NCBI GenBank assembly: GCA_963743635.1 | Contig: CAVUQO010000003.1 | Span: 96,001-160,000, forward strand | Direction of reading: 5' to 3' | Source: Candidatus Babeliales bacterium | Lineage (GTDB): Bacteria; Babelota; Babeliae; Babelales; Vermiphilaceae | Length of the DNA stretch: 64,000 nucleotides | Translations under genes and position numbers: made by a program | The notes under the pieces: model-generated | Database searches by the model: none | Seen by the model: only the letters and a program-made list of their open reading frames with translations | Told to the model about the DNA's origin: nothing | Shown here: piece by piece, positions 5,229 through 57,218 of the stretch | Position numbering within the stretch: position 1 is the stretch's first letter | Layout of the letters: each line of letters begins with the position of its first letter

Positions 5229-5483
5229 CTATGGGTGCGAGTGCTCTTGTTGCATAGACATCTGCGGATGCGGCTGCTGTTGCTGCATTGGCATCTGCGC
5301 ATGCGGCTGCTCTTGCTGTAGTTGCATTGCAATTATTGGTGGCATTGGTGCTTGTGGGTGTTGTTGTTCTTGTTGAGGCATTAGCGCTTGCGGGTGCGGC
5401 TGCTCTTGTCCGTTATACATGGCTCTTGCGCGTCCATAAACGGCCAGTGCTATGAGTGCCATAACTTTAAAGTATTTTTTCAT
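5229..5483 (-). CDS. Small secreted Gln/Pro/His-rich protein with QQQPHPQ repeats
   Basis: AAGGA RBS; signal peptide paralogous to the downstream gene. Confidence 0.7.
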   Translation of the reverse strand: MKKYFKVMALIALAVYGRARAMYNGQEQPHPQALMPQQEQQHPQAPMPPIIAMQLQQEQPHAQMPMQQQQPHPQMSMQQEHSHP

Positions 5484-5553: not shown

Positions 5554-5988
5554 TTAATTATTATTGTTATTGTTATTATTGTTGTTCGGTTGAACTGGTG
5601 CAGCGGGATCCTGAGGAGCAATCTGATAAATCAGACGTATCATTTCTATCTTCTCGCGTAATAGAATAAATGCTCGTCTGCTTGCTTTTCCATTGAATGA
5701 GGCGACGCGATCAAGCTCTGCGCCCAAATTCACGATTTCTTGAGCACGGCCTTGTAACGCAACGGTAAGCAATTCAGGGTTTCCAAAACGATTCTTTATG
5801 AACCTAGTCATATCGATACACGCAGAGTTGATCTGGCTCGTTCTAATTTTGTTATGTATATTGGCGATTTTTTGGTCGTCGGTAAGATTTGATGTTTCAT
5901 CATCCGATGAATCCAAATCATTATTCATTGCAAAAATATTTCCCGCTGAAGCAACGAGTAGGGCAGTTAGAAGATATAATTTTTTCAT
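5554..5988 (-). CDS. Secreted hypothetical protein with poly-Asn C-terminus
   Basis: Signal peptide MKKLYLLTALLVASAGNIFA-M; paralogous ends with 6328..6750. Confidence 0.75.
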   Translation of the reverse strand: MKKLYLLTALLVASAGNIFAMNNDLDSSDDETSNLTDDQKIANIHNKIRTSQINSACIDMTRFIKNRFGNPELLTVALQGRAQEIVNLGAELDRVASFNGKASRRAFILLREKIEMIRLIYQIAPQDPAAPVQPNNNNNNNNNN

Positions 5989-17752: not shown

Positions 17753-17949
17753 GCCATTCATTTTTATCGGCTGCGAAGAAGATTTTCACCTTACGAGGAT
17801 TGAAAAATGAATGACTTGTCAAAAAACTCTGTATCGCTTTCTCTCAGCAGGGTTCTTTTTGTGAATATACCTTAAAAGAGAATGGCTCGCCATTCATTTT
17901 TATCGGCTGCGAAGAAGATTTTCACCTTACGAGGATTGAAAAATGAATG
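17753..17949. repeat. Two identical 61-bp hairpin units downstream of tRNA-Gly
   Basis: 17753..17813 equals 17889..17949; each has CATTCATTTTT...AAAAATGAATG arms. Confidence 0.9.
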
Positions 17950-18023
17950 GAGCGGGAGACGGGATTCGAACCCGCGACCTTTGCCTTGGCAAGGCAACGC
18001 TCTACCAACTGAGCTACTCCCGC
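17948..18023 (-). tRNA. tRNA-Gly(GCC)
   Basis: 76-nt cloverleaf GCGGGAG...CTCCCGCTCCA, anticodon loop TT-GCC-AA, T-loop TTCGAAT, encoded CCA. Confidence 0.98.
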
Positions 18024-22577: not shown

Positions 22578-23324
22578 TTATGGACGAGCTATAATTATGA
22601 TAGCAGGCTTGGATGATTCTTTTTCGTATTGCAGCTGTTTGTATATCAATAAGCCGTAATTTTTTTGAATTTTTTTGCGAAGGGATTCGACTTCTTGGTC
22701 TTTTGTCTCTTTTGTATCTATGGTGAATGCATTAACTTCAGCTTGAACCTTATGGAGCAGTGGAGTAACAATGCAGACCTCTTCTTTTTTCTGTCTTTCG
22801 ATGAATGCAAGCAGCGCATGACCGAGTCCAAGGCGTAATTCATGAGCGAGTGGCGCTAATTCTTCATCACCAGCCGTTTCTTTATCAAAATTATTAACTT
22901 CATCTCTCAGGCTCGATAAGTTTTCAATTTGCTGATTTTTGCTCAGTAGATTGCGAGCATCTCGTTCATCAGTCGGCTCATTGAGAGTCGCTATTAGTTT
23001 TTGTGCTATCACGCTTCCGACACCCTGCATTGCCCCTTGAAAAACGCCTTGCACCGCTCCTTCAGCAGCAGCCTTTGCAAGAATTCCGGCAGCATTAACA
23101 ACGGGATTGTCGCTTACTGTTTGAGCCGTGAAGGTTGGTTGCTGGTGCGTGTGATACGTATTTTGTCCCGTGCTGTGCATAAAAACGTGTGGCGTATGAA
23201 CATTGGTTTCACCAGAACTGATATTGGTGCCTTGCTGTATCGGCCTTGGTGTTTCACCTTCCATAGCAAACATTGTTGCATTGATTGAAATAAGCGCCAC
23301 GATAAGACATTGTTTTTTGAACAT
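22578..23324 (-). CDS. Secreted hypothetical protein (MFA-MEG)
   Basis: 248-aa ORF with signal peptide and a Gly/Ala-rich helix. Confidence 0.7.
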   Translation of the reverse strand: MFKKQCLIVALISINATMFAMEGETPRPIQQGTNISSGETNVHTPHVFMHSTGQNTYHTHQQPTFTAQTVSDNPVVNAAGILAKAAAEGAVQGVFQGAMQGVGSVIAQKLIATLNEPTDERDARNLLSKNQQIENLSSLRDEVNNFDKETAGDEELAPLAHELRLGLGHALLAFIERQKKEEVCIVTPLLHKVQAEVNAFTIDTKETKDQEVESLRKKIQKNYGLLIYKQLQYEKESSKPAIIIIARP

Positions 23325-29471: not shown

Positions 29472-29966
29472 TTATTTCAGGATTGTTTTTATCGTATTGT
29501 AGATTTCTATATGGTCGAGATAAAGATGTTCGTTTTTAACTATAACATATAGATGTTTTTCTATATCGCATTGATTATTGAGATTATTGAATTCTTTTTT
29601 ATATTGTTCGATGTGATTTTTCAAATTCACATCAGTTTTAATTTTTGCGAGTAAAGGCTTTGCTTGCTGAAGCCAAGCAGGCATCACCTTGTTAGCTTCT
29701 GTTATAGATTTTTCTGCTTGAATGGCCCAACCTTGCACTTTTCCAGCTGTTTTTGTGTCCATTGCCGATTTATCTTCGCTATTCCTGTGCATCACCTTGT
29801 CAGCTTCATCTACAGCTTTATCAGTATCACGAGCTGTATTCTTCCCGTGAGTATGAATTATGCCTTGTATGATGGCTGTAGTTATAAAAACTTTATCCAT
29901 GGCGCATGCTACACTGCCAAGCGTCAGGCCTAACGATGCAATTACTGATAACAATTTGTGATTCAT
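29472..29966 (-). CDS. Secreted hypothetical protein (ACA-MDK)
   Basis: AAGGAG RBS, signal peptide. Confidence 0.7.
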   Translation of the reverse strand: MNHKLLSVIASLGLTLGSVACAMDKVFITTAIIQGIIHTHGKNTARDTDKAVDEADKVMHRNSEDKSAMDTKTAGKVQGWAIQAEKSITEANKVMPAWLQQAKPLLAKIKTDVNLKNHIEQYKKEFNNLNNQCDIEKHLYVIVKNEHLYLDHIEIYNTIKTILK

Positions 29967-30762: not shown

Positions 30763-32154
30763 ATGTTATCTTCTTTGGTTCATTATTTTTACCCAGATCT
30801 CAATAAAGATGAGATCAAAAAATTTAGTTATTTATCACTGACGTTCTTTTTGATTATCGGTAGCTATTGGCTCGTCCGGTTATTAAAAAATACGCTATTT
30901 TTAAAAATCGCTTTTCCTGAAGCACTTGGTTGGCTTCCTCATCAAGGTCTACTCTTCCAGCCGATTGCGAAATTCTATTCACCATTCATAGTCTTTACTT
31001 TGGTTATGGTCTATTCAAAGCTGGTCGATATGTTCAAAAAACATGTCCTTTTCTATATCATCTGTACCTTCTATGCAATTGTGTTTGGCGGCATTACCGT
31101 CATGCTTGTGTTGCGTAGCCAATATGGAGATTTATATTTAGGTAAAAATCTTTTAGCAATAGTCGGATGGGCATCCTACTTTGCTATAGAAAGTTTTGGC
31201 TCGCTTATCACTGCATTATTTTGGTCCTTCACCAATAGTATCTGTACCTCAGAATCAGCTAAAAGTGGTTACCCTATGATTCTTGCATGTGCGCAGATTG
31301 GCGCTATTGGAGGATCGATATTAATGATCTTCTCAAGCCATTTCGGATTATCCCTACTTTTTGGATTCGCAGCTTTTTTTGTTGCTGCAGTCATGCCCGT
31401 TATTCACAAGCTTATGAAAGCGGTTCCTGAATCACAAATGGTGGGTAATAAGCAAGCAGCAGCTACCGAAAAGCAAAAAGAAGGATTTATTGAAGGTTTT
31501 CTATCGGGTATAAAGCTGATTGTTACGCGACCATATATTTTTGGGATATTAATTGTCTCTACCCTTTATGAAGTCATCAATACTATTATCGAGTATCAAA
31601 TGAACACGCAAGCGAGTATGGTTTATACAACTGATATAGAATTTGCACGGTTTTCGGGTATTTATGGTACTGCAGTTAATAGCCTTGCTTTTTTGTTGGC
31701 ATTACTCGGTACGAGTTATCTCATTAAGCGCTTCGGATTGCGTTTTGGGCTCTTTATCTTCCCTGTTTCATTGTGTATTGCCTTTGCAATGTTATTTGGT
31801 TTTTATACACTCGGCGCTCCTTCAGCAGGGCATCTCCTTGCAGCAACGTTTGTGGTCATGATGATTGCAAAAGGACTCGGATATGCAGTTAATAATCCGG
31901 TCAAAGAAATGATGTATATTCCAACGAGCAAAGATGCAAAATTCAAATCAAAAGGATTCATCGATGTATTTGGCGGACGCATGTCCAAGCTTGGCGGCGC
32001 CTCAATTACGAATGCATTCAAATCAAGTCCGCATGATTTAATGGTATATGGCACAATGTTCAGTTTCGGATTAACTGGCATCTGGCTCTTGGCAGCGCTC
32101 TTTGTTGGTAAGAAGAATGCACAGTTAATCGCTGATAATGAAATCATTGAGTAG
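30763..32154 (+). CDS. Nucleotide transporter, TLC/NTT ATP/ADP translocase family
   Basis: About 12 TM helices; ESFGSL...LFW.F.N.I and KEM.YIP...D.KFK.K..ID..G.R..K.GG motifs. Confidence 0.9.
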   Translation: MLSSLVHYFYPDLNKDEIKKFSYLSLTFFLIIGSYWLVRLLKNTLFLKIAFPEALGWLPHQGLLFQPIAKFYSPFIVFTLVMVYSKLVDMFKKHVLFYIICTFYAIVFGGITVMLVLRSQYGDLYLGKNLLAIVGWASYFAIESFGSLITALFWSFTNSICTSESAKSGYPMILACAQIGAIGGSILMIFSSHFGLSLLFGFAAFFVAAVMPVIHKLMKAVPESQMVGNKQAAATEKQKEGFIEGFLSGIKLIVTRPYIFGILIVSTLYEVINTIIEYQMNTQASMVYTTDIEFARFSGIYGTAVNSLAFLLALLGTSYLIKRFGLRFGLFIFPVSLCIAFAMLFGFYTLGAPSAGHLLAATFVVMMIAKGLGYAVNNPVKEMMYIPTSKDAKFKSKGFIDVFGGRMSKLGGASITNAFKSSPHDLMVYGTMFSFGLTGIWLLAALFVGKKNAQLIADNEIIE

Positions 32155-32244: not shown

Positions 32245-32279
32245 TTAAAAGGGCTCTCGTAATTGAGGGTTCTTTTTGT
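32245..32279 (+). repeat. Junction hairpin copy 1 (AAAAGGGCTCTC-GTAATT-GAG...)
   Basis: Recurs at 34442, 36879, 38225, each just upstream of an MKRI.. gene. Confidence 0.85.
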
Positions 32280-32331
32280 TATTATTTAAATGATTTTTTT
32301 GATATATCTGCAGTGTTAATTGAGGAAAAAT

Positions 32332-34419
32332 ATGAAGCGTATACTCGGTATGGTTGTTGCGGGGGTTTTAAGCGGCAGTATACATGCGATGGAGCAAGTG
32401 GCGTTGCTTACATCGGATAATCAAACGGTAATGCTTGATGTAAATAAGGTGCCATTATTTGGAACGATCCAAAGTGTAGTGGCCGACACATTTCCAAAAA
32501 CAACGGATGGTAAATTGGATTACTCGGCACAAAAAGATCCGATTCCACTACGTAACGTTTCGTATGATGTATTAACGCAGTTAGTTGATGATACCGATGG
32601 CATGCGTGATAAGGGAGCCTTGCAAATACCCACTTATTCGGATGAAACACTTTCTCATACGATGGGCTTGCTCAACGCGGCAAATTATTTGGGTACGCAT
32701 CCTTTGTTGTGCGCAAAATATGCAAAAAAAATAGCCGGATTATTGATATCGGATCGATCATTGGAGCAATTGCAACAGGCCCCAACGAAGCATCCTGCTT
32801 TCAAGCCATATGCATTGGCGTATTGCGCAAAACAGATGATTTATCCATATATGCCGCAAACATGGGTTGATCGATCTACGATTGAGCATGATGGGATTGC
32901 ATCGGTAGAATGTTCACCAGATAGCAGTGCAATACTGACTAAATCGCGATCGCGTGAAGGATCGACTTTCTTGCATGAAGCAAAAATGGCGAATGTGGCA
33001 ACGGGTAAAGTACAGTATGAGATTAGATATAAATGCGACAATAACTGCGTATATTTAGTTCCAGGTGCACTTGTAGAAGATCCAGGAAGTAGTTATGTGT
33101 GTGTGTGCGACGAGGATGAAATAAGTATAGAGAGTGCAGCATCGGGCGAGGTATATAAATTTGCTAGCAGCCACGCTCGTTTTTATCCGTTGATAATGTA
33201 CATGATTCAGCGACAGATGTTCTCGTTCAATAGCGTTATGGCAATAATGCCCCGCCGGGATGATACACTAGAAGTAGCGGACTTAGTGACGGACCGATTA
33301 TTGCATGAAATCAAGTGTGAGGGTCCGATTGCATCAGGAGTCCTTTCATCAGATGGCCGCGCGGCTGTTGTTAAATCAGAGGATGGAGTTGTAAAAATAG
33401 TAATGATTGAAACAGGCACAGTGTTTGACATTGAGCGCGAAAATACTGTTCTGGGGGCAACGGCTTCACCAGATAATAGCAAGGTTATGATTATGTTAGA
33501 TGATGATACCGCAGAGATAGTAGATATGGCAACGCATGAGGTATTGCATAGATTTAAAGGTGAATTTGGTGGACATGAAGGGTTTTTTTCGTCAGATAGT
33601 AGCATGGTGGCCAGTGTGTGGGATGGTGTTGGAAAAATACTAGATGCAGAAACAGGCCGAGTGTTGTACGAAACTGATAATAGCGGACGGCGCCGAGGAC
33701 TGGTGAAGTTTTCGCCGGATAGTAGTAAGGCGATGTTTTGTACCTACGAGTCTTCAAGTTCAATAATAGAGATAGTAAGCGTGGCAACGGGTACAGTGCT
33801 GGAGATTAAGCACGATACTCCCCTTGCAGGGGCGTTTTTTTCACCAGATAGCAATAGAGTGATGCTTTTTTTCGATAAGTCTAAGTCAGCAGAGATAATA
33901 AATGTGGCAAGGGGTGACGTAGGATTGCACGAGTTTGCGGCAAGGAATATACGCCTCTCGGGATGGTGGTTTGATAGTAAATCGGATACGCAATTTTTAC
34001 CCGACGGAAATAGGGCGGTTGTGATGTCGAAAAATACAGCAAAAATAATTGAGAAGGCCGCAAGTAACTTTGATCAGGCATTATTAATGCAATTAATGGA
34101 ATGGTGTCGCACAAATAAGCGTTCTGTGCCGCAATGTGGATGGGTGGAAGATGTAGTACATAGTTATACTGACCAGTTAACACTCAAGGCAGCAACTGAA
34201 CGAGCATTTTACATCGTCAATAGGTCCAAACAACCTTCGCAGACTATGTCAGCAATCTTGCAAGATGGTCGCCCCATAGATTCGGAAGATGACACGCCCG
34301 TGGAATCTACAGGGTCGCAGTCTGCGCATTTAATGGAAGATACATCAGATAGTCGAGTAAGACGTCTTGCCAGACAACTGAGAGCATCCTCACGAGATTC
34401 GAAATGTACGATTTCTTGA
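32332..34419 (+). CDS. Secreted Skp1/BTB-like + WD40-like beta-propeller protein with C-terminal CaaX (CTIS)
   Basis: Signal peptide; LLTSDNQ, PIPLRNVS, LLNAANYL blocks; repeated FSPD/SSDG blades; ends SKCTIS. Confidence 0.75.
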   Translation: MKRILGMVVAGVLSGSIHAMEQVALLTSDNQTVMLDVNKVPLFGTIQSVVADTFPKTTDGKLDYSAQKDPIPLRNVSYDVLTQLVDDTDGMRDKGALQIPTYSDETLSHTMGLLNAANYLGTHPLLCAKYAKKIAGLLISDRSLEQLQQAPTKHPAFKPYALAYCAKQMIYPYMPQTWVDRSTIEHDGIASVECSPDSSAILTKSRSREGSTFLHEAKMANVATGKVQYEIRYKCDNNCVYLVPGALVEDPGSSYVCVCDEDEISIESAASGEVYKFASSHARFYPLIMYMIQRQMFSFNSVMAIMPRRDDTLEVADLVTDRLLHEIKCEGPIASGVLSSDGRAAVVKSEDGVVKIVMIETGTVFDIERENTVLGATASPDNSKVMIMLDDDTAEIVDMATHEVLHRFKGEFGGHEGFFSSDSSMVASVWDGVGKILDAETGRVLYETDNSGRRRGLVKFSPDSSKAMFCTYESSSSIIEIVSVATGTVLEIKHDTPLAGAFFSPDSNRVMLFFDKSKSAEIINVARGDVGLHEFAARNIRLSGWWFDSKSDTQFLPDGNRAVVMSKNTAKIIEKAASNFDQALLMQLMEWCRTNKRSVPQCGWVEDVVHSYTDQLTLKAATERAFYIVNRSKQPSQTMSAILQDGRPIDSEDDTPVESTGSQSAHLMEDTSDSRVRRLARQLRASSRDSKCTIS

Positions 34420-34590
34420 ATATCCATAAATAAAAACATATTTAAAAGGGCTCTCGTAATTGAGAGCCCTTTTTTGTATAATGTGTGGCGTTAAATTTTT
34501 ATGCATAGCTACTGTAAGGAAATGCGTTATGAAGCGTATATTTGGTATGGCGGTTGCTGTAGCAATTTTGGGTGGAAGTTTGCATGCGAT
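34386..34590 (+). repeat. Junction repeat copy 2 (CaaX tail, terminator hairpin, -10, RBS, signal peptide)
   Basis: Similar to 38168..38375 and, from the hairpin onward, to 36879..37030. Confidence 0.85.
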
Positions 34591-34777
34591 GAAGCCAGAA
34601 AAGAAAAAAGAAGCATCTACAAATAATGCATCTACAGGCGAAGAGAAAAAAAAAGGGGGTGCATATTATTGGGCAGAGTACACAGCGCTTTTGGCGCAAA
34701 ATATAGAAACACAGGAAGATCGCGTAAAAGCGCTTGATAAGGTGATGGATAAAATGCCTAATGACTCTAAATGGTAA
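34529..34777 (+). CDS. Small secreted protein carrying the MKRIFG signal peptide
   Basis: Start reassigned by AAGGA RBS and homology to paralogs. Confidence 0.7.
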   Translation: MKRIFGMAVAVAILGGSLHAMKPEKKKEASTNNASTGEEKKKGGAYYWAEYTALLAQNIETQEDRVKALDKVMDKMPNDSKW

Positions 34778-34867: not shown

Positions 34868-35251
34868 ATGCAAAAACTACTATTCATCTCTCTGATATGT
34901 TTGTCATCAGGATTGAATGCGATGTACCCCTGGAATTTATCCGAAAAGGAACGTGAAGCACGGGAGGCTGAAGGAGAGGAGCGGGCCCGAGCGCGGCATG
35001 CTCAAAGAGAGCAGGAGAGGCAAGAGCAAGAGCGCCAATGGCGAGAGGAAAGGCAGCTACAACGGCAAGAAGAAGAACGTCGACGACAACAAGAAGAACA
35101 CCAACGGCAAGAAGAAGAACGTCGACGACAGGAAGAAGAACGCCAACGGCAAGAAGAAGAACGGCTACGACGACAAGAAGAATTAGTGTATCGATTTGAA
35201 CGTGCAGTGCAATATGCCGAGGAAATGAATAAAAAAAATGAACAAAAATAA
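34868..35251 (+). CDS. Secreted charged-helix protein (RQEEERR repeats)
   Basis: Signal peptide LNA-MY; 21/42-bp tandem repeats at about 35060-35180. Confidence 0.7.
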   Translation: MQKLLFISLICLSSGLNAMYPWNLSEKEREAREAEGEERARARHAQREQERQEQERQWREERQLQRQEEERRRQQEEHQRQEEERRRQEEERQRQEEERLRRQEELVYRFERAVQYAEEMNKKNEQK

Positions 35252-36742: not shown

Positions 36743-36878
36743 AAGACATATCCTTTAGAAAAAGAACAACATTAAAATTTTGATCTAATGTACATTCATA
36801 ATGAGAAAAAACAAATTATGTGAACCAAATTTAGATCTCCAGTTTTTTCATATAAATAAACATTAAAAATAATGTCTT

Positions 36879-37030
36879 TAAAAAGGGCTCTCGTAATTGA
36901 GGGCCCTTTTTTGTATAGTGGGTGACGTTAAAATTTTATGCATAGTTACTGTAAGGAAGCGGACTATGAAACGGATATTCGGTATGGCGGTTGGTTTGGG
37001 AATTTTGGGTGGAAATTTGCATGCGATGGA
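36879..37030 (+). repeat. Junction repeat copy 3
   Basis: Hairpin, TATAGT, RBS and signal-peptide codons conserved. Confidence 0.85.
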
Positions 37031-38201
37031 ACAAGGGCAATCGAGTCAACAGCTTGATTATTCGTTTGTAAAAGCAGGCAATTATGAACATAAGAATGTT
37101 GATTTTGCAACTATTTCACCTGATGGCAACACCATCGCGAGCGTCTCGTGTTTGGCTAGAACGGTAAAGATTAAGTCATTGAGAACAGACGAACCTCCCT
37201 GTTGTTTTTCATTGCCCCATGAATACGAGGTAAAACTAGCAGAATTTTCACCCGATTCCAGCAAAATTGCGGTTGTGACTAAATATGATGCTCCTGGATG
37301 TTTTTTCATACTTGATGTAATTAAGAAGCAGAAAGGAGATAACGCTATAATATCTCCAAAGGCTTTCATGTTTCCCTGCGAATCAATAACGTTTGTACCC
37401 GGCAAAGAAAAGGTGATTGTGGCTGATCAAAAATCGGTAAAAGTTGTTAATATTTCTACGGGGCAAGCCGAGCATGAAATTGCGCTCGACCACTTCAAGT
37501 ATATTCGAGCATATTATTTACAAGGAGCTACTACGTTGCTTGCCTTATTGAATAATGGCATAGCAAAAAGAGTGAATCTTTCTACAAATGAAGATTTATC
37601 GGATATTACTTATCAAAGTGGTTCGATTGGAGGGAATGCTGGCTGGGGTGCAAGAATGGGCAACACGTCGGCTTTATCGGGCAATAAGATGGTGATCATC
37701 TCAGATGATAATAGCGTTGATGCGAAAACGGGTGATAATAGCGTGGGGGTCTATGATGCGACAACGGGTGAAAAAAAAATTGTAGTACCTACAGACCTTG
37801 TTAAGCGGGCGAGTACGGTAGCTTTATCTCCAGATGGTAAGGTTTTAGGATTTGCGCATCGTACTAGATACGTTTCTATAGTAGATGCAGAGACGGCTGA
37901 ATTGAAGCATACGGTACCTAATAAATCGAGCGGCTCTATCGTCTCTATAACGTTTTCACAAGATAATCGTTTTATGTTGGTTAGGCCTTGTTGGAACGGT
38001 GGGCCAGTCACTCTCTACGATGTTCAAACAGGTGAGAGTAAATTTGAATTTGAAGGCAGAATGCATACTTCGGGAGTATTTTCGACCGCAGGTGATTATG
38101 TGGTAGTCTCATCGTGTGATCTGAGCAAGGTCATGATTGTTCGGCGAATAATTGCCCAGTCTGCGCAATCCTCACAAGATTCGAAATGTATAATTTCTTG
38201 A
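36966..38201 (+). CDS. Secreted WD40-like beta-propeller protein with C-terminal CaaX (CIIS)
   Basis: SPDG/FSPD blades, YD..TG turns, ends SKCIIS. Confidence 0.8.
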   Translation: MKRIFGMAVGLGILGGNLHAMEQGQSSQQLDYSFVKAGNYEHKNVDFATISPDGNTIASVSCLARTVKIKSLRTDEPPCCFSLPHEYEVKLAEFSPDSSKIAVVTKYDAPGCFFILDVIKKQKGDNAIISPKAFMFPCESITFVPGKEKVIVADQKSVKVVNISTGQAEHEIALDHFKYIRAYYLQGATTLLALLNNGIAKRVNLSTNEDLSDITYQSGSIGGNAGWGARMGNTSALSGNKMVIISDDNSVDAKTGDNSVGVYDATTGEKKIVVPTDLVKRASTVALSPDGKVLGFAHRTRYVSIVDAETAELKHTVPNKSSGSIVSITFSQDNRFMLVRPCWNGGPVTLYDVQTGESKFEFEGRMHTSGVFSTAGDYVVVSSCDLSKVMIVRRIIAQSAQSSQDSKCIIS

Positions 38202-38375
38202 ACATCCATAAATAACAAGGCTATTTAAAAGGGCTCTCGTAATTGAGGGCCCTTTTTTGTATAGTGGGTGACGTTAAAATTTTATACATAGGTATCGTGA
38301 AGGAAATGGACTATGAAACGGATATTTGTTATAGCGGTTGTGGCGGGATTTTTGGGCGGCAGTGTGCATGCAATG
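38168..38375 (+). repeat. Junction repeat copy 4
   Basis: CaaX-coding tail, hairpin and leader as in copy 2. Confidence 0.85.
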
Positions 38376-39701
38376 CAGCAGAAACAATCGAGTCAGCAGC
38401 TTGAATACTCTTTCGTAAAGGCAGGCAATTATGAACATAAGAATGTTGATTTTGCAACTATTTCACCTGATGGCAAGGCGTTATTAACAACATCGCATGG
38501 AGGGTGGAAAGCCCCATACCGCGGAACTATAATGCTCAAACATATTGATAGTCGGGAAGAACCCGTTTGCTTTGAGCACAGGAGCAGTGAAATGTTGGCG
38601 GCCTTTTCATCCGATAGTAAACGGGCTGCAGTTTCGAGTCGGTATCACGCCAATAATGGAGCATTAATTATACTTGATGTGGTTAAGGGTAAGATAGAGA
38701 AGGAAATCCCTACTAATGATAAGGGTTGGCATTTTTTGTCGTTTGCATCAGGTGACACAAAGGTGATTACAGTTGGATATAGCTCGGTGCATATCTTTAA
38801 TAGCGATACGGGAGAAATAGAGCGTAAGATCGACGAGTATAGCGATAACATTGGAATATGTTTTTTTAAAGAGAATGTCTTGATGGCATTATTGCATAAT
38901 GGCGTGATAAAAAGTGTAGATCTCGGCACTCTTAAAGACTTGCCAGATATTACCTGTTTAGATGCACCCAAGGCTTGGGATTCTTGGGTAGGATCTGCAT
39001 CTGCGTTGGGTAATCGGGTGGTTATTGTTGGAGAAGCCGATGATGTGAACGTGTACGATGCGCAAACAGGCCATAAAATAGTGAAAATGCCTATGGGGAG
39101 AGTATCTGACTTTCATAATCGGTATCATGTGAGGCGGACTGGGTTATCATCAAGTGGCGATACTCTTGTACTTGGATTGCAGGGGAACCGAGGAGAGAAG
39201 GCAATGGTAGCTATAGCAGATATAAAGGGATGTTCAGGAATACATACTTTCAATCTTGAAATTTGTTTTAAAGAAGATGGTCTCCTAAGCCCCATAAATG
39301 CACCAGCAATAAAATTGTCGCCGGATGACCGTTCAATGTTAGTTGAGCCTGGGGATTGGAATTGTACAGGGCCCGCAGTTATCTATGATGTGCAAACGGG
39401 TGAAAAGAAATTTGAATTTGAAGGCGGCGAGAAGAATTCTACATATGGATTATTTTCTCCTAATGGTGAGTATGTGGTGGCTGCATCGGATGGAATAGTG
39501 CAGATTGCTCGGCGGATAATTGCGCAGTCCTTACAGGCGTCGGGACCATCAGAGCCTGCGCGTGCTTCACAAGCAGATGAAGATGATAAACCCGTGCAGT
39601 CTGGAGGTTCGCAATCTTTGCAGTTAGTGGAAGTGACATGGGGGAGTCGGGTCAGAAATCTTACCAGACGGCTGATAGCATCTTTACAATTTTCGAAATG
39701 A
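38313..39701 (+). CDS. Secreted WD40-like beta-propeller protein; CaaX interrupted by TGA
   Basis: Paralog of 36966..38201; 3' end reads TCG AAA TGA ATG GTT TCT TGA. Confidence 0.8.
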   Translation: MKRIFVIAVVAGFLGGSVHAMQQKQSSQQLEYSFVKAGNYEHKNVDFATISPDGKALLTTSHGGWKAPYRGTIMLKHIDSREEPVCFEHRSSEMLAAFSSDSKRAAVSSRYHANNGALIILDVVKGKIEKEIPTNDKGWHFLSFASGDTKVITVGYSSVHIFNSDTGEIERKIDEYSDNIGICFFKENVLMALLHNGVIKSVDLGTLKDLPDITCLDAPKAWDSWVGSASALGNRVVIVGEADDVNVYDAQTGHKIVKMPMGRVSDFHNRYHVRRTGLSSSGDTLVLGLQGNRGEKAMVAIADIKGCSGIHTFNLEICFKEDGLLSPINAPAIKLSPDDRSMLVEPGDWNCTGPAVIYDVQTGEKKFEFEGGEKNSTYGLFSPNGEYVVAASDGIVQIARRIIAQSLQASGPSEPARASQADEDDKPVQSGGSQSLQLVEVTWGSRVRNLTRRLIASLQFSK

Positions 39702-39860
39702 ATGGTTTCTTGATCATCTTATGTGCGGATTTTTCCTGTCATCGCCTACGGATTGGGATCTTTCCAACGACGTCTTTGCGACCGTGAGTTTGACCATCTA
39801 TCCCTTTTTACCTACACTAAAATAAGTACCAATATAAAGTCCTTTAGCATTAGTAATTCT

Positions 39861-44908: not shown

Positions 44909-46318
44909 CTACGAACAGCATTGTGTTACGGTCACACTATTTGGCGTTGATACAGAGCCATTCGCATCAACCGATACAATGTAATAACTGTAGACCACAT
45001 TTGGTTGGCGATTGTGATCATAATATTGTAATGGTGCATTCGCTGGAATCGTTGCAACGAGTTCCGTGAGAGCTGGATCGCGGTAGATCTTGTATGAAAC
45101 TGGTACGGGACCGCTTGTGGGCGCTGTCCACGTAATATTGTTAATAAAATCAGTTTGCAGAAGAAATACGTTTTTCGTTTTGCATCCCTGTATTGAATTA
45201 GGAGGGTTTGGGGGTATAGTAATGACGCTTACACTGCCTAAATTGTAGGGGCCTCCGGTATCATTGACTACATACGCTCTTGTACCATCAGGAGTAAGTG
45301 CAATCCCAGTGGGAGTATTAAATGAGGGATCGTTGATAACATCAGTCACCGTATTAGAGGCAGTGTTAATGACGGTGACGCTTCCTGTGCCATAGGCGCC
45401 GCCCATCTGATTGGTTACATAGGCTGTTGCGCCATCAGGGGAAATCGTAATTACTACGGAAGTATTAAATGAGGGATCGTTGATAACATCAGTAACCGTA
45501 TTAGACTCAGTGTTAATGACGCTGACGCTTCCTGTGCCATAGGTGCCGCCGCTCTGATTGGCTACATAAACTGTTGTGCCATCAGGGGTCATTGCAAGTA
45601 CTGCAGAAATATTAAATGAGGGATTGTTGATAACGGCAGCAACCGTATTAGAGGCAGTGTTAATGACGCTGACGCATCCTGTGCCATAGGTGCCGCCCAT
45701 CTGATTGCCTACATAAGCTCTTGTACCATCAGGGGTAAAGGTTATTAATGCAGGATCATTAAATGAGGGATCATTGATAACATCAGTCACCGTATTAGAG
45801 GCGGTGTTGATGACGCTGATGCTTCCTGTGCCATAGGCGCCGCCAGTCTCATTGGCTACATAAACTGTTTTATCATCAGGAGTAATTGCAATTCCGAGGG
45901 GCTCATCAAATGAGGGATCATTGATAACGTCAGTCACCGTATTAGACACAGTGTTAATGACGCTGACGCATCCTGTGCCATGGGTGCCGCCAAGTAGATT
46001 GGCTGCATAAGCTGTTGTACCCTCAGAGGTTACGATTATTATAGGCCTATTAAATGAGGAATCGTTGATAACATCAGTAACAGTATTAGAGATGGTGTTA
46101 ATAACGGTGATGCTTCCTGTGCCGGAGGTACCGCCAGCTTGGTTGGGGACATACGCTGTTGGATTATTAGGGCTAATTTCAATCCATAAGGGCGTATCAA
46201 ATGATGGATCATTGATAACATCAGTAACCATAATTGATGAGGTGGCATAAAGCCCATGCGCGACAAGTAATGACGTGGATAATAAATATACTATACGATG
46301 AGCAACTTTTTTTAACAT
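44909..46318 (-). CDS. YncE/YVTN-type beta-propeller with FN3-like C-terminal domain
   Basis: About seven near-identical 50-aa repeats (TPDG..AYV.N..GG..GTG.VSVINT.SNTV). Confidence 0.85.
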   Translation of the reverse strand: MLKKVAHRIVYLLSTSLLVAHGLYATSSIMVTDVINDPSFDTPLWIEISPNNPTAYVPNQAGGTSGTGSITVINTISNTVTDVINDSSFNRPIIIVTSEGTTAYAANLLGGTHGTGCVSVINTVSNTVTDVINDPSFDEPLGIAITPDDKTVYVANETGGAYGTGSISVINTASNTVTDVINDPSFNDPALITFTPDGTRAYVGNQMGGTYGTGCVSVINTASNTVAAVINNPSFNISAVLAMTPDGTTVYVANQSGGTYGTGSVSVINTESNTVTDVINDPSFNTSVVITISPDGATAYVTNQMGGAYGTGSVTVINTASNTVTDVINDPSFNTPTGIALTPDGTRAYVVNDTGGPYNLGSVSVITIPPNPPNSIQGCKTKNVFLLQTDFINNITWTAPTSGPVPVSYKIYRDPALTELVATIPANAPLQYYDHNRQPNVVYSYYIVSVDANGSVSTPNSVTVTQCCS

Positions 46319-47350: not shown

Positions 47351-48640
47351 TTATGCGACCACTACCGGCACATGCATACTTTCTGTGCCATCGCTGTAAA
47401 CAGTGCTTATCGAGTAATTATTTTTGTCGTTACATGAAGGCAGATAAATGTTAGTTACGGGGGGACAATTTGCAGAAACTGTTTGTACCAAAGTAGTGCC
47501 CTGATAGACGTTATATGCGGTGGGATATGCCATCGCATTAGCAGTATTAGGTGTCCAGGTGATAGCCAGTACGAACCCAGTTTGAAGTAGGAAAACATTT
47601 TTTTTCACAGTTCCTGAAACGCCAGCTGGATGATTAACGGTTGTTATTGCCATGCCTACGGGCTCACTGCCCACTGGTATATCAGTTCCTGCAACCGGCG
47701 CTGCGCGATTGGTGATATTAAGTGGTGTAACAGAGTTATCACCAGTATTGGGTATATACGCATAGGAACCTTCAGGGGCAATTACAAGAGATGGGTTAGG
47801 CCCTATGCCTGCTGTGACTGATGTTCCTACTACGGGTGATGCAGGGTTTGAGATATTAATCGGAGTGACACTGCTAGCAGTGTAATTAGTTGCATAGAGA
47901 TAACCGCCATCGGGAGTTACGGCTACGCCAATAATGACACCTGGTGGCAGTGTTATCGTATTTGAAACGGTGGGCGCGAGTCGGTTTGATAGATTGAGTT
48001 GTATCACACTGCCTGCATCATTGTTAGCCACATACGCATAGCTGTTAGAAGGGTCAATGGTAATATCATAAGGAAATACTAGGGGAGCTCCCGTTACTGG
48101 AGTGCCCAATGTATTAGTTGCTATATCAATAGGGATAACGCCTATGGAGGCGCCAGTATCACATACATAAGCAGTCAAACCATTAGGTGCGATAGCGATG
48201 GCAAAAGGTCCGCTGAATCCTGGAATAACGACGTCAACACTATTGGTTGCTATATTGATGCGTTGTACGGTATCAGTACCCGCGTCAGCGCACGTGACAT
48301 ATACATAGAGGCCGTCCGGTGTTACTGCAGTAAACTGTGGTGTTGAAGAGCCGAAGGAAATATCAGGAAGGATGTGTGTGTTGGTTGCAACATCAATGCG
48401 TTTTACGGTGTTATCCGTTTTGCACGGGACAAATACCGTACTATTATCCGGGGTCACGCTGAGGCCAGGGTTAGATTCAGCGCCGAGGTCTACCGTAGCA
48501 ATCACCAGATCGGTGGCAGCATCGATAACAGAGACGGTGGTATCATTATCATTACCGACGTATATAAAGGGCGCTGTGTGAATAATGAGTCCAGCGTGCA
48601 ATGTCACAAGCGTTAACAGCATTCGTTTACGAATATTCAT
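47351..48640 (-). CDS. YncE/YVTN-type beta-propeller with divergent copy of the C-terminal domain
   Basis: TPDG.Y.YV, VSVID blades; KKNVFLLQT..ITW. Confidence 0.8.
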   Translation of the reverse strand: MNIRKRMLLTLVTLHAGLIIHTAPFIYVGNDNDTTVSVIDAATDLVIATVDLGAESNPGLSVTPDNSTVFVPCKTDNTVKRIDVATNTHILPDISFGSSTPQFTAVTPDGLYVYVTCADAGTDTVQRINIATNSVDVVIPGFSGPFAIAIAPNGLTAYVCDTGASIGVIPIDIATNTLGTPVTGAPLVFPYDITIDPSNSYAYVANNDAGSVIQLNLSNRLAPTVSNTITLPPGVIIGVAVTPDGGYLYATNYTASSVTPINISNPASPVVGTSVTAGIGPNPSLVIAPEGSYAYIPNTGDNSVTPLNITNRAAPVAGTDIPVGSEPVGMAITTVNHPAGVSGTVKKNVFLLQTGFVLAITWTPNTANAMAYPTAYNVYQGTTLVQTVSANCPPVTNIYLPSCNDKNNYSISTVYSDGTESMHVPVVVA

Positions 48641-48706
48641 ACTTTTCCTTTTTGAAATGGTGTATCGAGACTGTATCAAAGATGCGATATGGTGTGCAAG
48701 AAAAAG

Positions 48707-49981: not shown

Positions 49982-51262
49982 TTAAGCGGTGTAGCGTATG
50001 AGTGAAAAAGTACTATCACTTAGTCCGGCGGTTACCGCTTCTCCGTCTGACTGAATACCGACAGCCTGAGCGAAAGCAAATGATCCGACGCTGGTAGAAG
50101 TGTAGCCATTGGTGCCATACGAGAGATTAAGAGATCCCGACGGAGTATATCGTGCGATATTCGTGTTATAAGTTAGGCCGGCGCTACTGTATCCAGCCGC
50201 TATAATATCATCGGTATAAGAATAATCATTGGTTTGTAATGCGAGTGCGTAGAATTCAGAGCTGTAGTTTATTTGCGTGGTAACATATCCTGTGCCATTA
50301 AATGAGGTGTCAAGGGCGCCACTTGGAGTGCATCTGATAAGAAGAGAGTTATAAACCTGATCAAAATCATCTTCCGCAACAAAAATGCTTCCGGCTATAA
50401 CGATGTAATTATTTTGATCAAGTATCATATCGTATCCAACTGCAACGTTGCCAACGCTGGGCATAAATATTCCTGATGAGCCAAAGCTAGGATCAAGTGC
50501 ACCACTTGGCGTGTAGCGCGCAAGCGTAATTTGTTCGTCTGAATTGCCCAGCACAATAATATAATCCTGATAAATACCACTGGGTACGATAGCAATTGCT
50601 TGTATGTATGAGATAACCCCAATTTGGGTAGTAGTGATGCCGGCTGTTCCAAAAGAGGTATCAAGAGTTCCCGCATAAACTCCCGAAGCGATAAAGCGTG
50701 CGAGTGTAAATTGAGGAGTCTCATTATTGATGCTAACGCCTGCGACAATAATATTTCCTGAGCTTTGTATGCCTACCGCATATGCAGCAGATCCATCGCC
50801 GGTGGTAACGGTAGCATAACCATTAGGGCTATTGAATGCGGTGTCGAGGGTGCCGTTCGTATTATAACGAGCGACGAGCATGTTGGTTTCAGTTTGAAAG
50901 GTAAAGCCTGATACCACAATTTTTTGATCAGAAGGTTGCAATGCAAGATCATATCCTTCAGCGCGGGTGCCAACTAAAAGCGCGTTGGTGCCTGGTGTGC
51001 TGCCTCCGCTGTTAAATGTAGTATCAAGAACGCCATTATTTGTGTATCGCGCTAAAAAAAGTTCTGGATATGTCTGCGAGCTGGTTCCTGTAATGACAAT
51101 GTCATTGTTAGTTTGTATTTGAAGACTTCTCAGAATGTCGCGACGACTTGCTTGTGTCAGAGTAAAACCAACATTACCAAAGCTGGTATCAATTTGGCCT
51201 GAAGTAATAATAGATACACTGTGTATAAGGTAGATTGCGGTGATAATATATTTCATATTCAT
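49982..51262 (-). CDS. Delta-60 (DUF5122-like) repeat beta-propeller protein
   Basis: Repeated ARY..NG.LDT.F...G and Q.D.KIVV.G units; signal peptide. Confidence 0.85.
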   Translation of the reverse strand: MNMKYIITAIYLIHSVSIITSGQIDTSFGNVGFTLTQASRRDILRSLQIQTNNDIVITGTSSQTYPELFLARYTNNGVLDTTFNSGGSTPGTNALLVGTRAEGYDLALQPSDQKIVVSGFTFQTETNMLVARYNTNGTLDTAFNSPNGYATVTTGDGSAAYAVGIQSSGNIIVAGVSINNETPQFTLARFIASGVYAGTLDTSFGTAGITTTQIGVISYIQAIAIVPSGIYQDYIIVLGNSDEQITLARYTPSGALDPSFGSSGIFMPSVGNVAVGYDMILDQNNYIVIAGSIFVAEDDFDQVYNSLLIRCTPSGALDTSFNGTGYVTTQINYSSEFYALALQTNDYSYTDDIIAAGYSSAGLTYNTNIARYTPSGSLNLSYGTNGYTSTSVGSFAFAQAVGIQSDGEAVTAGLSDSTFSLIRYTA

Positions 51263-51273
51263 GAACTTAACCC

Positions 51274-53844
<2,571 letters not shown>

Positions 53845-53915
53845 CTATATATAGCAAACAACAGAGTAAGAATGAACATTCGATAACGTTTACACTACAA
53901 TGAGGAGCCGTACAG

Positions 53916-56900
53916 ATGAAACAAAAATATTTTTTTCTATTGATAATAGGGTTCTTGCCTCTGAATGCGCTGAAGATTGATAGAGTTATTTTGGCAACTG
54001 ACAATAATCCGGCATATATAGAATTTTGGCCGGTAGTGGCAAAGGCGTGGAAAGAGCGTATTGGCGTACAACCAACCTTGGCATTAATAGCACCCAGCGA
54101 CGTGCGGGTAGATGAATCATTGGGTGATGTTATACGCTTTGAGCCCTTGCCCGACATTCCAACATCCCTGCAAGCGCAAACAATACGCTTATTGTTACCC
54201 GCATATTTTCCCGATGAGGTATCGATCATATCAGACATCGATATGATTCCGTTGAATAAAGAATATTTCGTAGATTCTGTTGCTGATGCTCCTGATGATG
54301 CATTCGTGGTGTATCGAGAAGTGGCAGAGATTCCAAAGTTTCCTATGTGTTATGTGGCGGCAAAAGGGAGCACTTTCAAAGATATATTTCAAGTACATTC
54401 TGTGCATGATATTGGCTCGATTATTACCTATTGGCATTCATTGAATATTGGTTGGAGCACTGATGAGATGGTGATGTATCACTCTTTATTGCAATGGCCG
54501 AAATATGCGCAAAAATGTATCAAATTAGGTCATGGGGTCCAAAGACGCATTGATAGATATTGGGGCTTGGAGCATGATGATCAGTTGCTTGAGCAGGGAT
54601 ATTACATCGATGCTCATTGTCCACGGCCTTACAGCGCGTATAAAAAAGAAATAGATGCACTTATAAAAACTTCACGATCTCAGAATAAATCTCATCAACA
54701 TGAAAAAAAACCAAAAGTATCCATCATAACCTCCCTCTTTAAAGGCGATGATTTTATTGTTGGATTCCTATCGGATATTACGAGACAAACGATTTTCAAT
54801 GAATGTGAACTGATCATTATCAATGCAAATTCTCCGGGGCACGAAGAACCCATAATCAGAGAGTACATGCAACGATTTCCCAATATTGTGTATAAAAAAT
54901 TAGATCATGATCCAGGGCTTTATGCCGTCTGGAATATGGCGATTAAGATGGCACGTGCTGATCTTATTACGAATGCGAACGTAGATGATAGGCGAAATCC
55001 TGAATCGCTTGAGGTGCAAGCTCGTGCACTGGAAGAAGATCCTACTGTTGATTTAGTGTATTCAAATTGTCGAGTCACCTATACTCCTAACGAAACCTTT
55101 GAGTCTAATACGGGAGAATGCATACTATGTCCGTCGGATTTTTCATCGCACCGCATGTTTTGCTGTTTACCCGGGCCGCAGCCAATGTGGCGCAAATCGA
55201 TGCATGAAAAATGCGGATTATTTGATGAGAGCTTTCAGTGTGGCGGCGATTTTGAAATGTGGAATAGAGCGGTATATGTGGGCTCGCAATTTAAAAAAAT
55301 TCCTGGGCAAAGCGGAGTCTTCTATGTTAATCCCAAGGGGCTTTCAACCGATATAGAAAAAAAATCAATTCAAGAAGCAGAGCTCGGTAGAATTTGTGAA
55401 AAATATGCATCTTTATGGCGAATGCCTCACTTCTTTTGTACAGCTGCCGATAGCAACTATTTTCCGCATCTTTTAAATCTTATTGGGAGTATACATGAAA
55501 CCAGTTTTGACGCGCTTGGCGCTATTGCGGTGTTTGATTTGGGGTTAACTGAAGAACAAATACAGCATTTGAATACTATTGAAAAGGTTTCGGTCCATAA
55601 AATAGAAATGACGCATGCTGATCTTTTAACGCGCTTTAAAACAAGTCATTCAGGAAAAGTGGCACCTGGTTGGTATGCATGGAAATTTGTAGTGCTCAAG
55701 CAAGCGCTCGAGATGTTTCCCTATGTATTATGGGTTGATTCAGGTACTACTATTTTAAAACCGCTAGATTCGATGTTTAAGTATATTTTAGAATCGGGAT
55801 ATTTTTTAGCCACTATAGGTGATGAAAAAATCAATAAGGCTATTCAGCATCCAATTCGATGGGGAGCAACGGAATATGTAAAGCAAGCATTTGATCTTTC
55901 ACGCGCTGAGCGTGCGTATGTTCTGGAAAAAGAGCCATTATTGTCTGGTACTATCGGTGTTTCACGCAAAGCTGTGGACTATTTAGTCGGCCCTTTATAT
56001 AGCCTCACCAACAACCTTAGATTATTTGAAGATGACGGCACCACGCCACATGGATTTGGTACGGGAAGACATGATCAGGCTATTTTGAGTATTTTTGCGT
56101 ATTTGCATGGACTGACGGTGCATCGCCAAGATCATACGCAAGAAACACCCCTCTGCCTCAATGTAGCCGGTAAGAATGAAGAAGTTTACATTACATGGAA
56201 TGGAAGCTGTGTAAATGAAAAAACTCATCTTTATAATTCAAGAGGTGATTTATCTCGCCATGACCATTACAGCAAAGCAATACGACGCACTGTTCGTGAA
56301 CCGGAAAGAAAAGATGATGAGTCCAAGAAGCCAAAAATTGTTGCGCTTGTGCCGGGCCGCAATGAAGCGGTATTGCTGCATCAACATTTAAAGGCGCTCT
56401 CACTCTTTGTGGATGCGATTGTGTATCTTGATGATGCATCAGATGATAGCAGTATGGAAATTCTGCAATCAATTGCTGCCGAGTGTAAGATAGAGCGTAT
56501 TATGCGCAAGGATACGTGGTACAGAGATGAGCCGGGCGATCGTAATAAGCTCCTTGCAGAGGGCAGAGCCATAGGGGGCACTCATTTTGTGGTGCTTGAT
56601 GTTGATGAGATGTTTACCGCAAATTGCCTTGATAATAATTTCTTACGCAATGCGATATTGTCGCTCAATCCAGGGGATCAGCTCGGTCTTGTCTGGATTC
56701 AGCTTTGGCGCAGTCTCGATGTATATCGCTTTGATGATTCAGTCTGGACGTGGAATTATAAGAATTTTATTTTTTGTGATGATAAAGAATGTTTTTATTC
56801 ATCTGATTTTCTGCATACATCGCGTTCACCTTGGAATTTAAAAGGCAAATCATTCATTATTCATGGATATGAGCATGGCGTGCTCCATTTCCAGTTTGTG

Positions 56901-57218
56901 AACTGGAGAAATGTAGTAATAAAGCACTGCTGGTATCGTTGTTTGGAGCATATACGTAATCCATCCAAATCAATATCTGATATTAATGCGCTGTATGGAG
57001 CGAGTTTAAATGAAGCAAATCTTAAAACGGTAAAAAGTCCGGACGCATGGTTTTCAAACTACGCTCCCTTCTTCAATCCAACGCTTTATAGTAAGCCAGA
57101 GGGCTGGAGAGAGTCTGAGATACAAAATTGGTTCAGTCAGTACGGAAAAAACTTCTTTGAATCGTTGGATATCTGGAATATAGATTGGGGATTAACCTTG
57201 ACGAATCAGTGTCAGTAA
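53916..57218 (+). CDS. Multidomain glycosyltransferase (about four GT-A-like modules) with signal peptide
   Basis: SDID; KVSIIT..NVDD; VFDLGL..AWK..WVDSG..RHDQ; RNE..DDAS.D..LDVDE. Confidence 0.75.
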   Translation: MKQKYFFLLIIGFLPLNALKIDRVILATDNNPAYIEFWPVVAKAWKERIGVQPTLALIAPSDVRVDESLGDVIRFEPLPDIPTSLQAQTIRLLLPAYFPDEVSIISDIDMIPLNKEYFVDSVADAPDDAFVVYREVAEIPKFPMCYVAAKGSTFKDIFQVHSVHDIGSIITYWHSLNIGWSTDEMVMYHSLLQWPKYAQKCIKLGHGVQRRIDRYWGLEHDDQLLEQGYYIDAHCPRPYSAYKKEIDALIKTSRSQNKSHQHEKKPKVSIITSLFKGDDFIVGFLSDITRQTIFNECELIIINANSPGHEEPIIREYMQRFPNIVYKKLDHDPGLYAVWNMAIKMARADLITNANVDDRRNPESLEVQARALEEDPTVDLVYSNCRVTYTPNETFESNTGECILCPSDFSSHRMFCCLPGPQPMWRKSMHEKCGLFDESFQCGGDFEMWNRAVYVGSQFKKIPGQSGVFYVNPKGLSTDIEKKSIQEAELGRICEKYASLWRMPHFFCTAADSNYFPHLLNLIGSIHETSFDALGAIAVFDLGLTEEQIQHLNTIEKVSVHKIEMTHADLLTRFKTSHSGKVAPGWYAWKFVVLKQALEMFPYVLWVDSGTTILKPLDSMFKYILESGYFLATIGDEKINKAIQHPIRWGATEYVKQAFDLSRAERAYVLEKEPLLSGTIGVSRKAVDYLVGPLYSLTNNLRLFEDDGTTPHGFGTGRHDQAILSIFAYLHGLTVHRQDHTQETPLCLNVAGKNEEVYITWNGSCVNEKTHLYNSRGDLSRHDHYSKAIRRTVREPERKDDESKKPKIVALVPGRNEAVLLHQHLKALSLFVDAIVYLDDASDDSSMEILQSIAAECKIERIMRKDTWYRDEPGDRNKLLAEGRAIGGTHFVVLDVDEMFTANCLDNNFLRNAILSLNPGDQLGLVWIQLWRSLDVYRFDDSVWTWNYKNFIFCDDKECFYSSDFLHTSRSPWNLKGKSFIIHGYEHGVLHFQFVNWRNVVIKHCWYRCLEHIRNPSKSISDINALYGASLNEANLKTVKSPDAWFSNYAPFFNPTLYSKPEGWRESEIQNWFSQYGKNFFESLDIWNIDWGLTLTNQCQ

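Follow-up and report, generated by a model that had tools for sequence, protein, structure and literature searches.

A gene at 32332..34419 on the forward strand of the 64,000-nucleotide stretch of bacterial DNA analyzed here (the window) encodes a 695-residue protein whose N-terminal domain is, on profile and structure-model evidence, a homologue of eukaryotic Skp1, with a resemblance that goes beyond chance. In the same chain this domain is followed by a divergent WD40-type beta-propeller, a C-terminal helical module and a terminal CTIS, which constitutes a CaaX (Cys-a-a-X) box. An earlier note, made from the sequence alone, had proposed a one-piece fusion of adaptor and substrate receptor for Skp1-cullin-F-box (SCF) ubiquitin ligases. 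The fusion itself stands, with a Skp1-type domain and a propeller in one polypeptide. The principle is not new, because it is known from the BTB-Kelch proteins of Cul3 and from a giant-virus 'BTB/POZ domain and WD-repeat protein'; the Skp1-type one-piece version in a bacterium is the new part. Nor is the protein a lone oddity, as sequence comparison places it in a small, metagenome-only family with a conserved C-terminal module that the earlier note did not contain. We found no description of a bacterial Skp1 homologue, of a Skp1-propeller fusion, or of such a protein with a CaaX box in the open-access and bioRxiv literature searched; an earlier account elsewhere is possible.

The open reading frame (ORF) extends over 32320..34419 (+) and would give 699 residues if begun at TTG (ORF list). 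The ATG at 32332, which opens the sequence MKRILG, is the likelier start, since a GAGGAA Shine-Dalgarno-like motif lies directly 5' of it, the alternative TTG at 32320 falls within that motif, and three neighbouring genes open with ATG-AAR-CGN (MKR) behind a near-identical upstream region. In the translation, the signal peptide, VALLTSDNQTVMLDV, TIQSVVAD, PIPLRNVSYDVL, LLNAANYLGTHPLL and the terminal CTIS are all present in the order in which they had been reported. The parts of the gene are the following.

32332..32391 (+): signal-peptide-like N-terminus MKRILGMVVAGVLSGSIHAM (residues 1-20), with a basic n-region, a hydrophobic core and an 'AM' end
32392..32886 (+): Skp1-like domain (residues 21-185), a BTB/POZ-type core followed by helices at the place of the Skp1 C-terminal helices, ending near Trp178
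32887..34053 (+): divergent WD40-type beta-propeller (residues 186-574), probably with eight blades
34054..34251 (+): C-terminal helical module (FDQALLMQLMEWC...GWVEDVV...; residues 575-640), hereafter the C-module, which matches no known family
34252..34404 (+): probably flexible linker (residues 641-691), of low confidence, with the Arg/Lys-rich RVRRLARQLRASSRDSK just ahead of the CaaX box
34405..34419 (+): CaaX box C-T-I-S, then the stop codon (from the translation; the cysteine is Cys692)

The Skp1-like domain, the propeller and the protein family

The blocks downstream of the leader had been likened to those of eukaryotic Skp1, and profile searches, Foldseek and hhalign all find a Skp1 fold in residues 21-185. 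Used singly in phmmer against all PDB sequences, residues 21-203 gave two matches at E<=10, both to human Skp1 and both weak (E 0.12), in which PIPLRNV and NAANYL were paired with PVPLPNV and AANYL of Skp1. We then used a profile made from the window protein and 14 of its 17 relatives (15 N-domains; the fragment P0010 was omitted, as were P0011 and P0013, which are without the first half). This profile matched 56 PDB sequences at E<=10, namely 31 Skp1, 21 Elongin C and four unrelated sequences (E>=0.23). The best match was to Skp1 (E 4.4e-10), with human Skp1 at about 8e-08 over its residues 2-127; E-values ranged from 1e-10 to 1e-6 for Skp1 as against 1e-3 to 0.1 for Elongin C. No generic BTB chain was among the 56 matches, Pfam PF00651 (generic BTB) matched neither the protein nor any of the 15 N-domains, and no BACK or 3-box was identified. 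That the profile finds Skp1 and Elongin C without a BTB chain points to Cul1 rather than Cul3. The same profile matched P0036, a genuine two-domain Skp1, in a database of 5.8 billion proteins (E 1.3e-06), and hhalign aligned the two with a probability of 96.3% (E 1.7e-09). Skp1_POZ (PF03931) matched eight of the 15 N-domains at E<=1 (best 3.6e-07), and the full-length relative P0017 scored above the curated cut-off of this family (22.8 vs 21.9 bits). PIPL..V and AANYL, which are common to Skp1, rank among the best conserved motifs of the family, and we take both to be motifs that face Cul1 in Skp1.

The modeled structure agrees with the profile. AlphaFold2 run on the N-domain alignment gave a predicted local distance difference test (pLDDT) of 91.2 and a predicted template modeling score (pTM) of 0.85, with helices predicted where the C-terminal helices of Skp1 sit. 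Foldseek returned 51 PDB matches to this model at E<=1e-3, and all 46 of the 46 matches listed were Skp1-containing entries. The best superposition, on 1fs1_B, had a TM score of 0.75 (target-normalised) and a root-mean-square deviation (rmsd) of 3.6 A over 134 columns. Giant-virus Skp1-family proteins were the top matches in a viral structure library (Pithovirus 2.7e-05, Pandoravirus 1.3e-04), with weaker fold matches (E 6e-3 to 4e-2) to poxvirus BTB-Kelch proteins and to the Mimivirus 'BTB/POZ domain and WD-repeat protein R739'. A protein-language-model Atlas yielded sub-threshold leads only (0.80-0.84), those with names being Skp1, Elongin C or BTB clusters. When a global hhalign alignment was forced, the near-invariant Trp178 was set on the C-terminal Trp of Skp1 with zero column confidence.

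Set beside eukaryotic Skp1 (PF03931 plus PF01466), the bacterial protein is predicted to have the same fold (Foldseek E 1e-05) and order of secondary structure over the whole 165-residue domain and shares the motifs (V/I)xLxSSD, TIK, PxPLxNV and AANYL. It differs in having a signal peptide, in carrying a C-terminal propeller fusion instead of binding a separate F-box protein, in giving no PF01466 match, in an extra insertion (FPKTTDGKLDYSAQK) before the PIPL strand, and in being encoded by a bacterial chromosome.

WD40-like blades do follow this domain, as the earlier note had it, in divergent form. Pfam reported beta-propeller families only, all below curated cut-offs (best 5.4e-08, over residues 309-508). 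With phmmer the propeller matched 69 PDB sequences at E<=0.01 (top 7.6e-08), and the best 60 of these 69 were mostly WD40 propellers; Fbw7 (E 1.1e-05) and TolB (E 1.9e-04) were also matched. Seven clear xSPDxx repeats are present, and the 144 residues between the first and the second could house degenerate blades. The full-length AlphaFold2 model, calculated from 18 sequences (pLDDT 74.9, pTM 0.70), places 33 strands between residues 178 and 575, a number compatible with eight blades of four strands each, and shows low-confidence insertions at about residues 242-254, 280-295 and 530-551. Its best Foldseek matches were ODA16 propellers (E 5e-19).

The C-module pattern FDxALLxxxLxW...W occurs in 15 of the 20 family representatives. 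Helices are predicted at residues 580-594, 603-611 and 615-632, with pLDDT of about 85-93 up to residue 620, and pLDDT falls below 50 at 627-672 and 679-695, the final 55 residues being of low confidence. We found no counterpart of the C-module in Pfam (residues 557-695, E<=10), the PDB or the Atlas; NCBIfam had no match to any part of the protein, and in Pfam the N-domain and the tail were blank as well. There was no support for the C-module being an F-box that packs back onto the Skp1-like helices, as neither the single sequence, a 7-sequence profile nor the Atlas gave an F-box; the C-module profile had two PDB matches at E<=10, neither of them an F-box protein.

Searched exhaustively with phmmer, 1.84 billion representative proteins yielded 17 relatives at E<=1e-3. 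Profile searches in the set of 5.8 billion proteins contributed no more than P0023, P0024 and the genuine Skp1 P0036. Of 8000 candidates scored in a word-indexed search for full-length homologues, the only ones found were the protein itself and three generic WD40 proteins; this type of search overlooks relatives, and known short family members were not returned. All relatives are metagenomic. They bear either no name or the name 'WD40 repeat protein', which gives no hint of the Skp1-like domain. A scan of named genomes with the three closest sequences matched 27 stretches and gave no relatives. Family members share a layout of hydrophobic leader ending in an invariant Met (usually 'AM'), Skp1-like domain, variable-length propeller and C-module. 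In the alignment of the 18 family members M20 is the sole invariant column, and the number of propeller repeats differs widely. P0018 and P0023 carry two units per chain, each made up of Skp1-like helical half, WD40 propeller and C-module, and are 1020-1170 residues long. In P0011, in P0013 and in the second units of P0018 and P0023, the beta-sheet half of the Skp1-like domain is gone and its helices are kept.

The CaaX box and the duplicated cassettes

The terminal CTIS had been read as a CaaX signal for host farnesylation, and the box is conserved in relatives and paralogues. It ends six of the 20 family representatives (CTIS, CIIM, CAII twice, CAIL and CVIQ), and position a2 is Ile in every one of them. 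Relative to a Cys frequency of 1.6% in the ORFs of the window, this count gives a binomial P of 5e-07, a figure that is only a guide with related sequences. Among nine cluster mates, the box is present in four (three with CAII and one, in the cluster of CVIQ, with CMIQ), two stop short, and three are from clusters without it. CaaX members fall into three separate sub-clades of a quick tree of the 15 N-domains plus P0036, several forks of which are weakly supported. Boxes in which X is Ser, Met or Gln tend to be farnesylated, and those with Leu geranylgeranylated.

The window also holds two plain WD40 paralogues, which share the head and tail of the Skp1-WD40 gene.

32247..32276 (+): terminator-like hairpin opening the head cassette (fold -15.5 kcal/mol, z -4.4)
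36966..38201 (+): paralogue 2, with head cassette, signal and WD40 propeller, without Skp1-like domain or C-module, ending in DSKCIIS
38313..39713 (+): paralogue 3, with head cassette, signal, WD40 propeller and homologous tail, without Skp1-like domain or C-module

The tail cassette at 34386-34436 is 90% identical at the DNA level to 38168-38218 of paralogue 2 (CIIS) over 51 nt that include the stop codon and 3' flank. This duplication, together with the enrichment among the family representatives, argues that the CaaX cysteine is not a chance Cys. The target tail is also 60% identical over 40 residues to that of paralogue 3 (38313-39701), where 39696-39713 has a TGA at the position of the CaaX Cys (TGT in the other two genes) and then an in-frame ATG GTT TCT TGA (K-stop-M-V-S-stop). 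We read this TGA as a probable recent nonsense loss of the prenylation box. Since the three genes share their tails, the CaaX box would predate the tail duplication and have been lost once since. Use of this TGA as a sense or selenocysteine codon was judged unlikely, given that under table 11 none of the housekeeping ORFs of the window is interrupted; SECIS elements were not searched for.

At the other end of these genes lies a head cassette, which spans 32245-32360, 34424-34598, 36861-37035 and 38207-38341, ahead of genes with differing mature parts. Its elements are the hairpin (AAAAGGGCTCTC-GTAATT-GAGGGCCCTTTT), a TATAAT-like box, an AAGGAA motif and the first ~20 codons (MKRIFG...HAM). Copies of the hairpin with <=2 mismatches were found at 32247, 34444, 36881 and 38227, four against none expected. 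This arrangement suggests a putative promoter-plus-signal module that was duplicated as a unit. The Skp1-WD40 gene is accordingly preceded by a hairpin, a promoter-like box and a Shine-Dalgarno-like motif of its own, a bacterial context, and its head and tail cassettes also equip the plain WD40 genes next door.

From the leader we would expect cleavage and Sec-type export of the 695-residue protein. At least 11 plausible ORFs of the window carry a leader whose hydrophobic stretch ends in 'AM'; the raw count is 14 matches for the 183 ORFs that are 60 residues or longer. On the reverse strand such leaders are found at 2162-3151, 5229-5483, 5554-5988, 22578-23324, 29472-29966 and 36742; others begin at 32332, 34529, 34868, 35290, 35745, 36966 and 38313. 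The variants HAM, NAM, YAM, FAM and CAM occur among otherwise unrelated ORFs, and the 'AM' leader looks like a lineage-typical export signal or cleavage motif. Short secreted-looking ORFs, without a Pfam match above cut-off, are clustered between the WD40 genes. One of the leader-bearing ORFs, at 34868-35251, encodes 127 residues rich in Glu/Arg/Gln repeats, with 21-nt tandem repeats at 35042-35182.

Proposed function, rival explanations and known systems

Domain identities, the fold, the conservation of the family and of its CaaX box, and a bacterial chromosomal setting with its own promoter-like and signal cassette are the observations on which we base a proposal for the function of the protein. 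We propose, with about even confidence, that it is an exported effector in which the Skp1-like domain docks host Cul1, the propeller recruits targets and host prenylation provides a membrane anchor. An obligate intracellular, Dependentiae-like bacterium would export the protein via the Sec pathway, and it would be delivered onward to the host cytosol by a route that the proposal does not specify. There, residues 21-185 would occupy the N-terminal domain of a Cul1-type cullin in place of host Skp1, and the propeller, fused where Skp1 ends and an F-box protein would bind, would select host proteins for ubiquitination. Host farnesyltransferase would lipidate Cys692 of CTIS, such that the ligase mimic would work at a membrane, with the basic stretch assisting. 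The processing of the leader and export of the protein, its passage into the host cytosol, its binding to a cullin, the ubiquitination of its targets and its prenylation are all steps that we infer.

Several results weigh against this proposal. A Sec signal leads to the periplasm, not into a host cell, and there is no secretion- or injection-system gene among the genes of the 64-kb window. Pfam finds nothing at E<=10 in the window protein's own N-domain (residues 21-203 and 21-303), PF01466, the F-box-binding C-terminal domain of Skp1, matches none of the 15 N-domains at E<=1, and Foldseek alignments that take in the last helices have an rmsd of 8-10 A. No F-box is detectable anywhere in the protein (Pfam scans, C-module profile). 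In SCF ligases the F-box also contacts Cul1, so that cullin affinity may differ for a protein in which it is missing. As for prenylation, 14 of the 20 representatives, several of which are fragments, are without a CaaX box, position a1 of CTIS is the non-aliphatic Thr, and paralogue 3 has lost the box.

The same fold and CaaX evidence would also suit a prenylated host-cytosol protein that sequesters Cul1 or F-box proteins at a membrane and so damps SCF activity as a Skp1 decoy or trap, with no active ligase. The helical half of Skp1 binds the F-box, and the family keeps this half of the domain most consistently, with the helices alone retained in P0011, in P0013 and in the second units of P0018 and P0023. 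However, the propeller is joined straight after the last helix and a conserved C-module lies beyond it, which suggests that the helical surface is used intramolecularly, and a plain decoy would not need a large propeller with a widely varying number of repeats. We consider a decoy unlikely. Another explanation, which we regard as distinctly unlikely, does away with the cullin: the Skp1-like domain would serve to oligomerise or dock, and the prenylated propeller would tether or reorganise host membranes or organelles. Skp1 serves in the non-SCF complexes RAVE and CBF3, a Skp1-containing RAVE structure has reportedly been described, BTB/POZ folds are often oligomerisation modules, and the two WD40-only paralogues with the target's signal and CaaX tail suggest that a membrane-anchored propeller has a role of its own. 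Yet the profile favours Skp1 over Elongin C and finds no generic BTB chain, and the motifs held in common with Skp1 are those that presumably face Cul1.

It is quite improbable, in our judgment, that the protein is not directed at a host at all, but is a propeller protein that the bacterium keeps in its periplasm or on its surface, with a functionless CaaX-like end. In keeping with such a role, the N-terminus resembles a standard Sec signal, TolB-type periplasmic propellers are among the weaker matches (E 2e-4), and the window encodes no injection system. Against it, we know of no partner of Skp1 in bacteria, the CaaX box is enriched and conserved, and the family is found only near Skp1-type sequence features of eukaryotes and giant viruses. 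In addition, a signal peptide is carried by many presumed effectors of a related lineage as described in its genome report (PMC6561590). With these alternatives in mind, we return to the ligase mimic and tentatively suggest, with somewhat less than even confidence, a broader interpretation. The proteins may be true Skp1 homologues, the first such family in bacteria, and act as self-contained receptors of SCF type, anchored to membranes, that bypass host Skp1 and F-box proteins. They would be built from three portable modules: the head cassette with promoter-like box and 'AM' signal, the Skp1-like domain with its C-terminal helical partner, and the CaaX tail cassette.

The closest functional precedent is AnkB of Legionella pneumophila, an F-box effector whose CaaX box is farnesylated by the host and thereby mediates membrane anchoring (PMC2916131). 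Both AnkB and the window protein would be bacterial mimics of an SCF component ending in CaaX. AnkB, however, mimics the F-box receptor and requires host Skp1, whereas no F-box is detectable in the window protein, which would mimic Skp1 itself; a type IV system injects AnkB, whereas the window protein has a Sec-type signal; and we saw no sequence relationship between the two. Seven CaaX effectors of Legionella (Pel effectors) have been reported (PMC13081727), and the C-terminal Cys-a-a-X of the window protein (CTIS) is the feature it shares with such host-prenylated effectors.

One-piece adaptor-plus-receptor proteins such as BTB-Kelch are known for Cul3. The BTB-Kelch and BTB-WD adaptors of eukaryotes, poxviruses and Mimivirus resemble the window protein in combining a cullin-docking BTB/POZ-type fold with a propeller in one chain; the docking domain of the window protein is instead of Skp1 type, and a signal peptide and CaaX box are added. 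The giant-virus Skp1-family proteins, our best viral structure-library matches, likewise come from parasites of protists, but are listed as stand-alone proteins of 190-250 residues with no propeller, signal peptide or CaaX box evident from the listing. F-box/WD40 receptors such as Fbw7 and beta-TrCP also have a WD40 propeller as the presumed substrate-binding part. These receptors start with a Skp1-binding F-box, and the window protein has Skp1-like sequence in that place.

Ubiquitin-ligase mimics are also found in other protist-associated intracellular bacteria. The Parachlamydiaceae, which belong to the Chlamydiae and not to a Dependentiae-like lineage, have expanded, fast-evolving F-box and BTB-box families with tandem duplicates, combined with LRR or TPR (also RING/U-box) domains (PMC4209131). 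The terms 'WD40', 'CaaX' and 'prenyl' do not occur in the available text of this survey, where 'Skp1' appears solely as a host component (PMC4209131). Ubiquitin-ligase mimicry is a major theme of bacterial and viral host manipulation, and the known bacterial mimics imitate the receptor end (F-box, BTB-box, U-box/RING) and rely on host Skp1. If our proposal is true, a Skp1 copy that brings its own receptor and a host-lipidation signal in one chain would be a different solution to ligase mimicry. It would also give a handle on the host proteins destroyed or relocated by a Dependentiae-type parasite. On the broader interpretation, the cassettes would point to modular production of prenylated effectors in a phylum about whose means of manipulating hosts very little is known.

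Genome context and other features of the window

The neighbours of the Skp1-WD40 gene are bacterial housekeeping genes, encoding GatB, RNase E/G, LeuRS, MnmE, YbeY, RuvA, alanine racemase and an aminoacyl-tRNA synthetase. There is no support for recent horizontal transfer or contamination, because the GC content of the gene (0.44) and its GC content at third codon positions (0.39) resemble those of neighbouring genes and are both inside the range of the housekeeping genes. Directly upstream, at 30763-32154, lies a gene for a TLC-type ATP/ADP (NTP/NDP) transporter (Pfam TLC 2.7e-27; TIGR00769 below cut-off). This transporter family is typical of obligate intracellular bacteria, and its presence would fit an energy-parasitic intracellular life style.

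The GatB protein is 60% identical to that of a Candidatus Dependentiae metagenome-assembled genome and its identity to the others among the 80 loci kept is no higher than 56%. A maximum-likelihood tree was built of GatB from 79 of the 80 loci and the window (L002 was left out by the length/X filter), and in it the window pairs with the Dependentiae genome with 100/100 support. As a single-gene placement in a biased sample, this makes a Dependentiae-like origin of the window probable, not proven. The bacterium probably lives inside protists. Very few Dependentiae have been cultured (PMC6561590). For one member, Chromulinavorax destructans, the genome report gives signal peptides on 44% of coding sequences, putative effectors included, and discusses secreted ankyrin proteins and outer-membrane vesicles as effector routes (PMC6561590).

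A tRNA-Gly(GCC) at 17948-18023 (-) is the sole RNA gene found in the window, with no other Rfam match at gathering thresholds. In the region 49985-57218, with two lactonase/YVTN-type propeller proteins encoded close by at 44912-46318 and 47354-48679, a collagen triple-helix repeat protein of 852 residues (51277-53832, -) is flanked by a delta-60/DUF5122 repeat propeller (49985-51361, -) and a 1100-residue family-2 glycosyltransferase (53916-57218, +).

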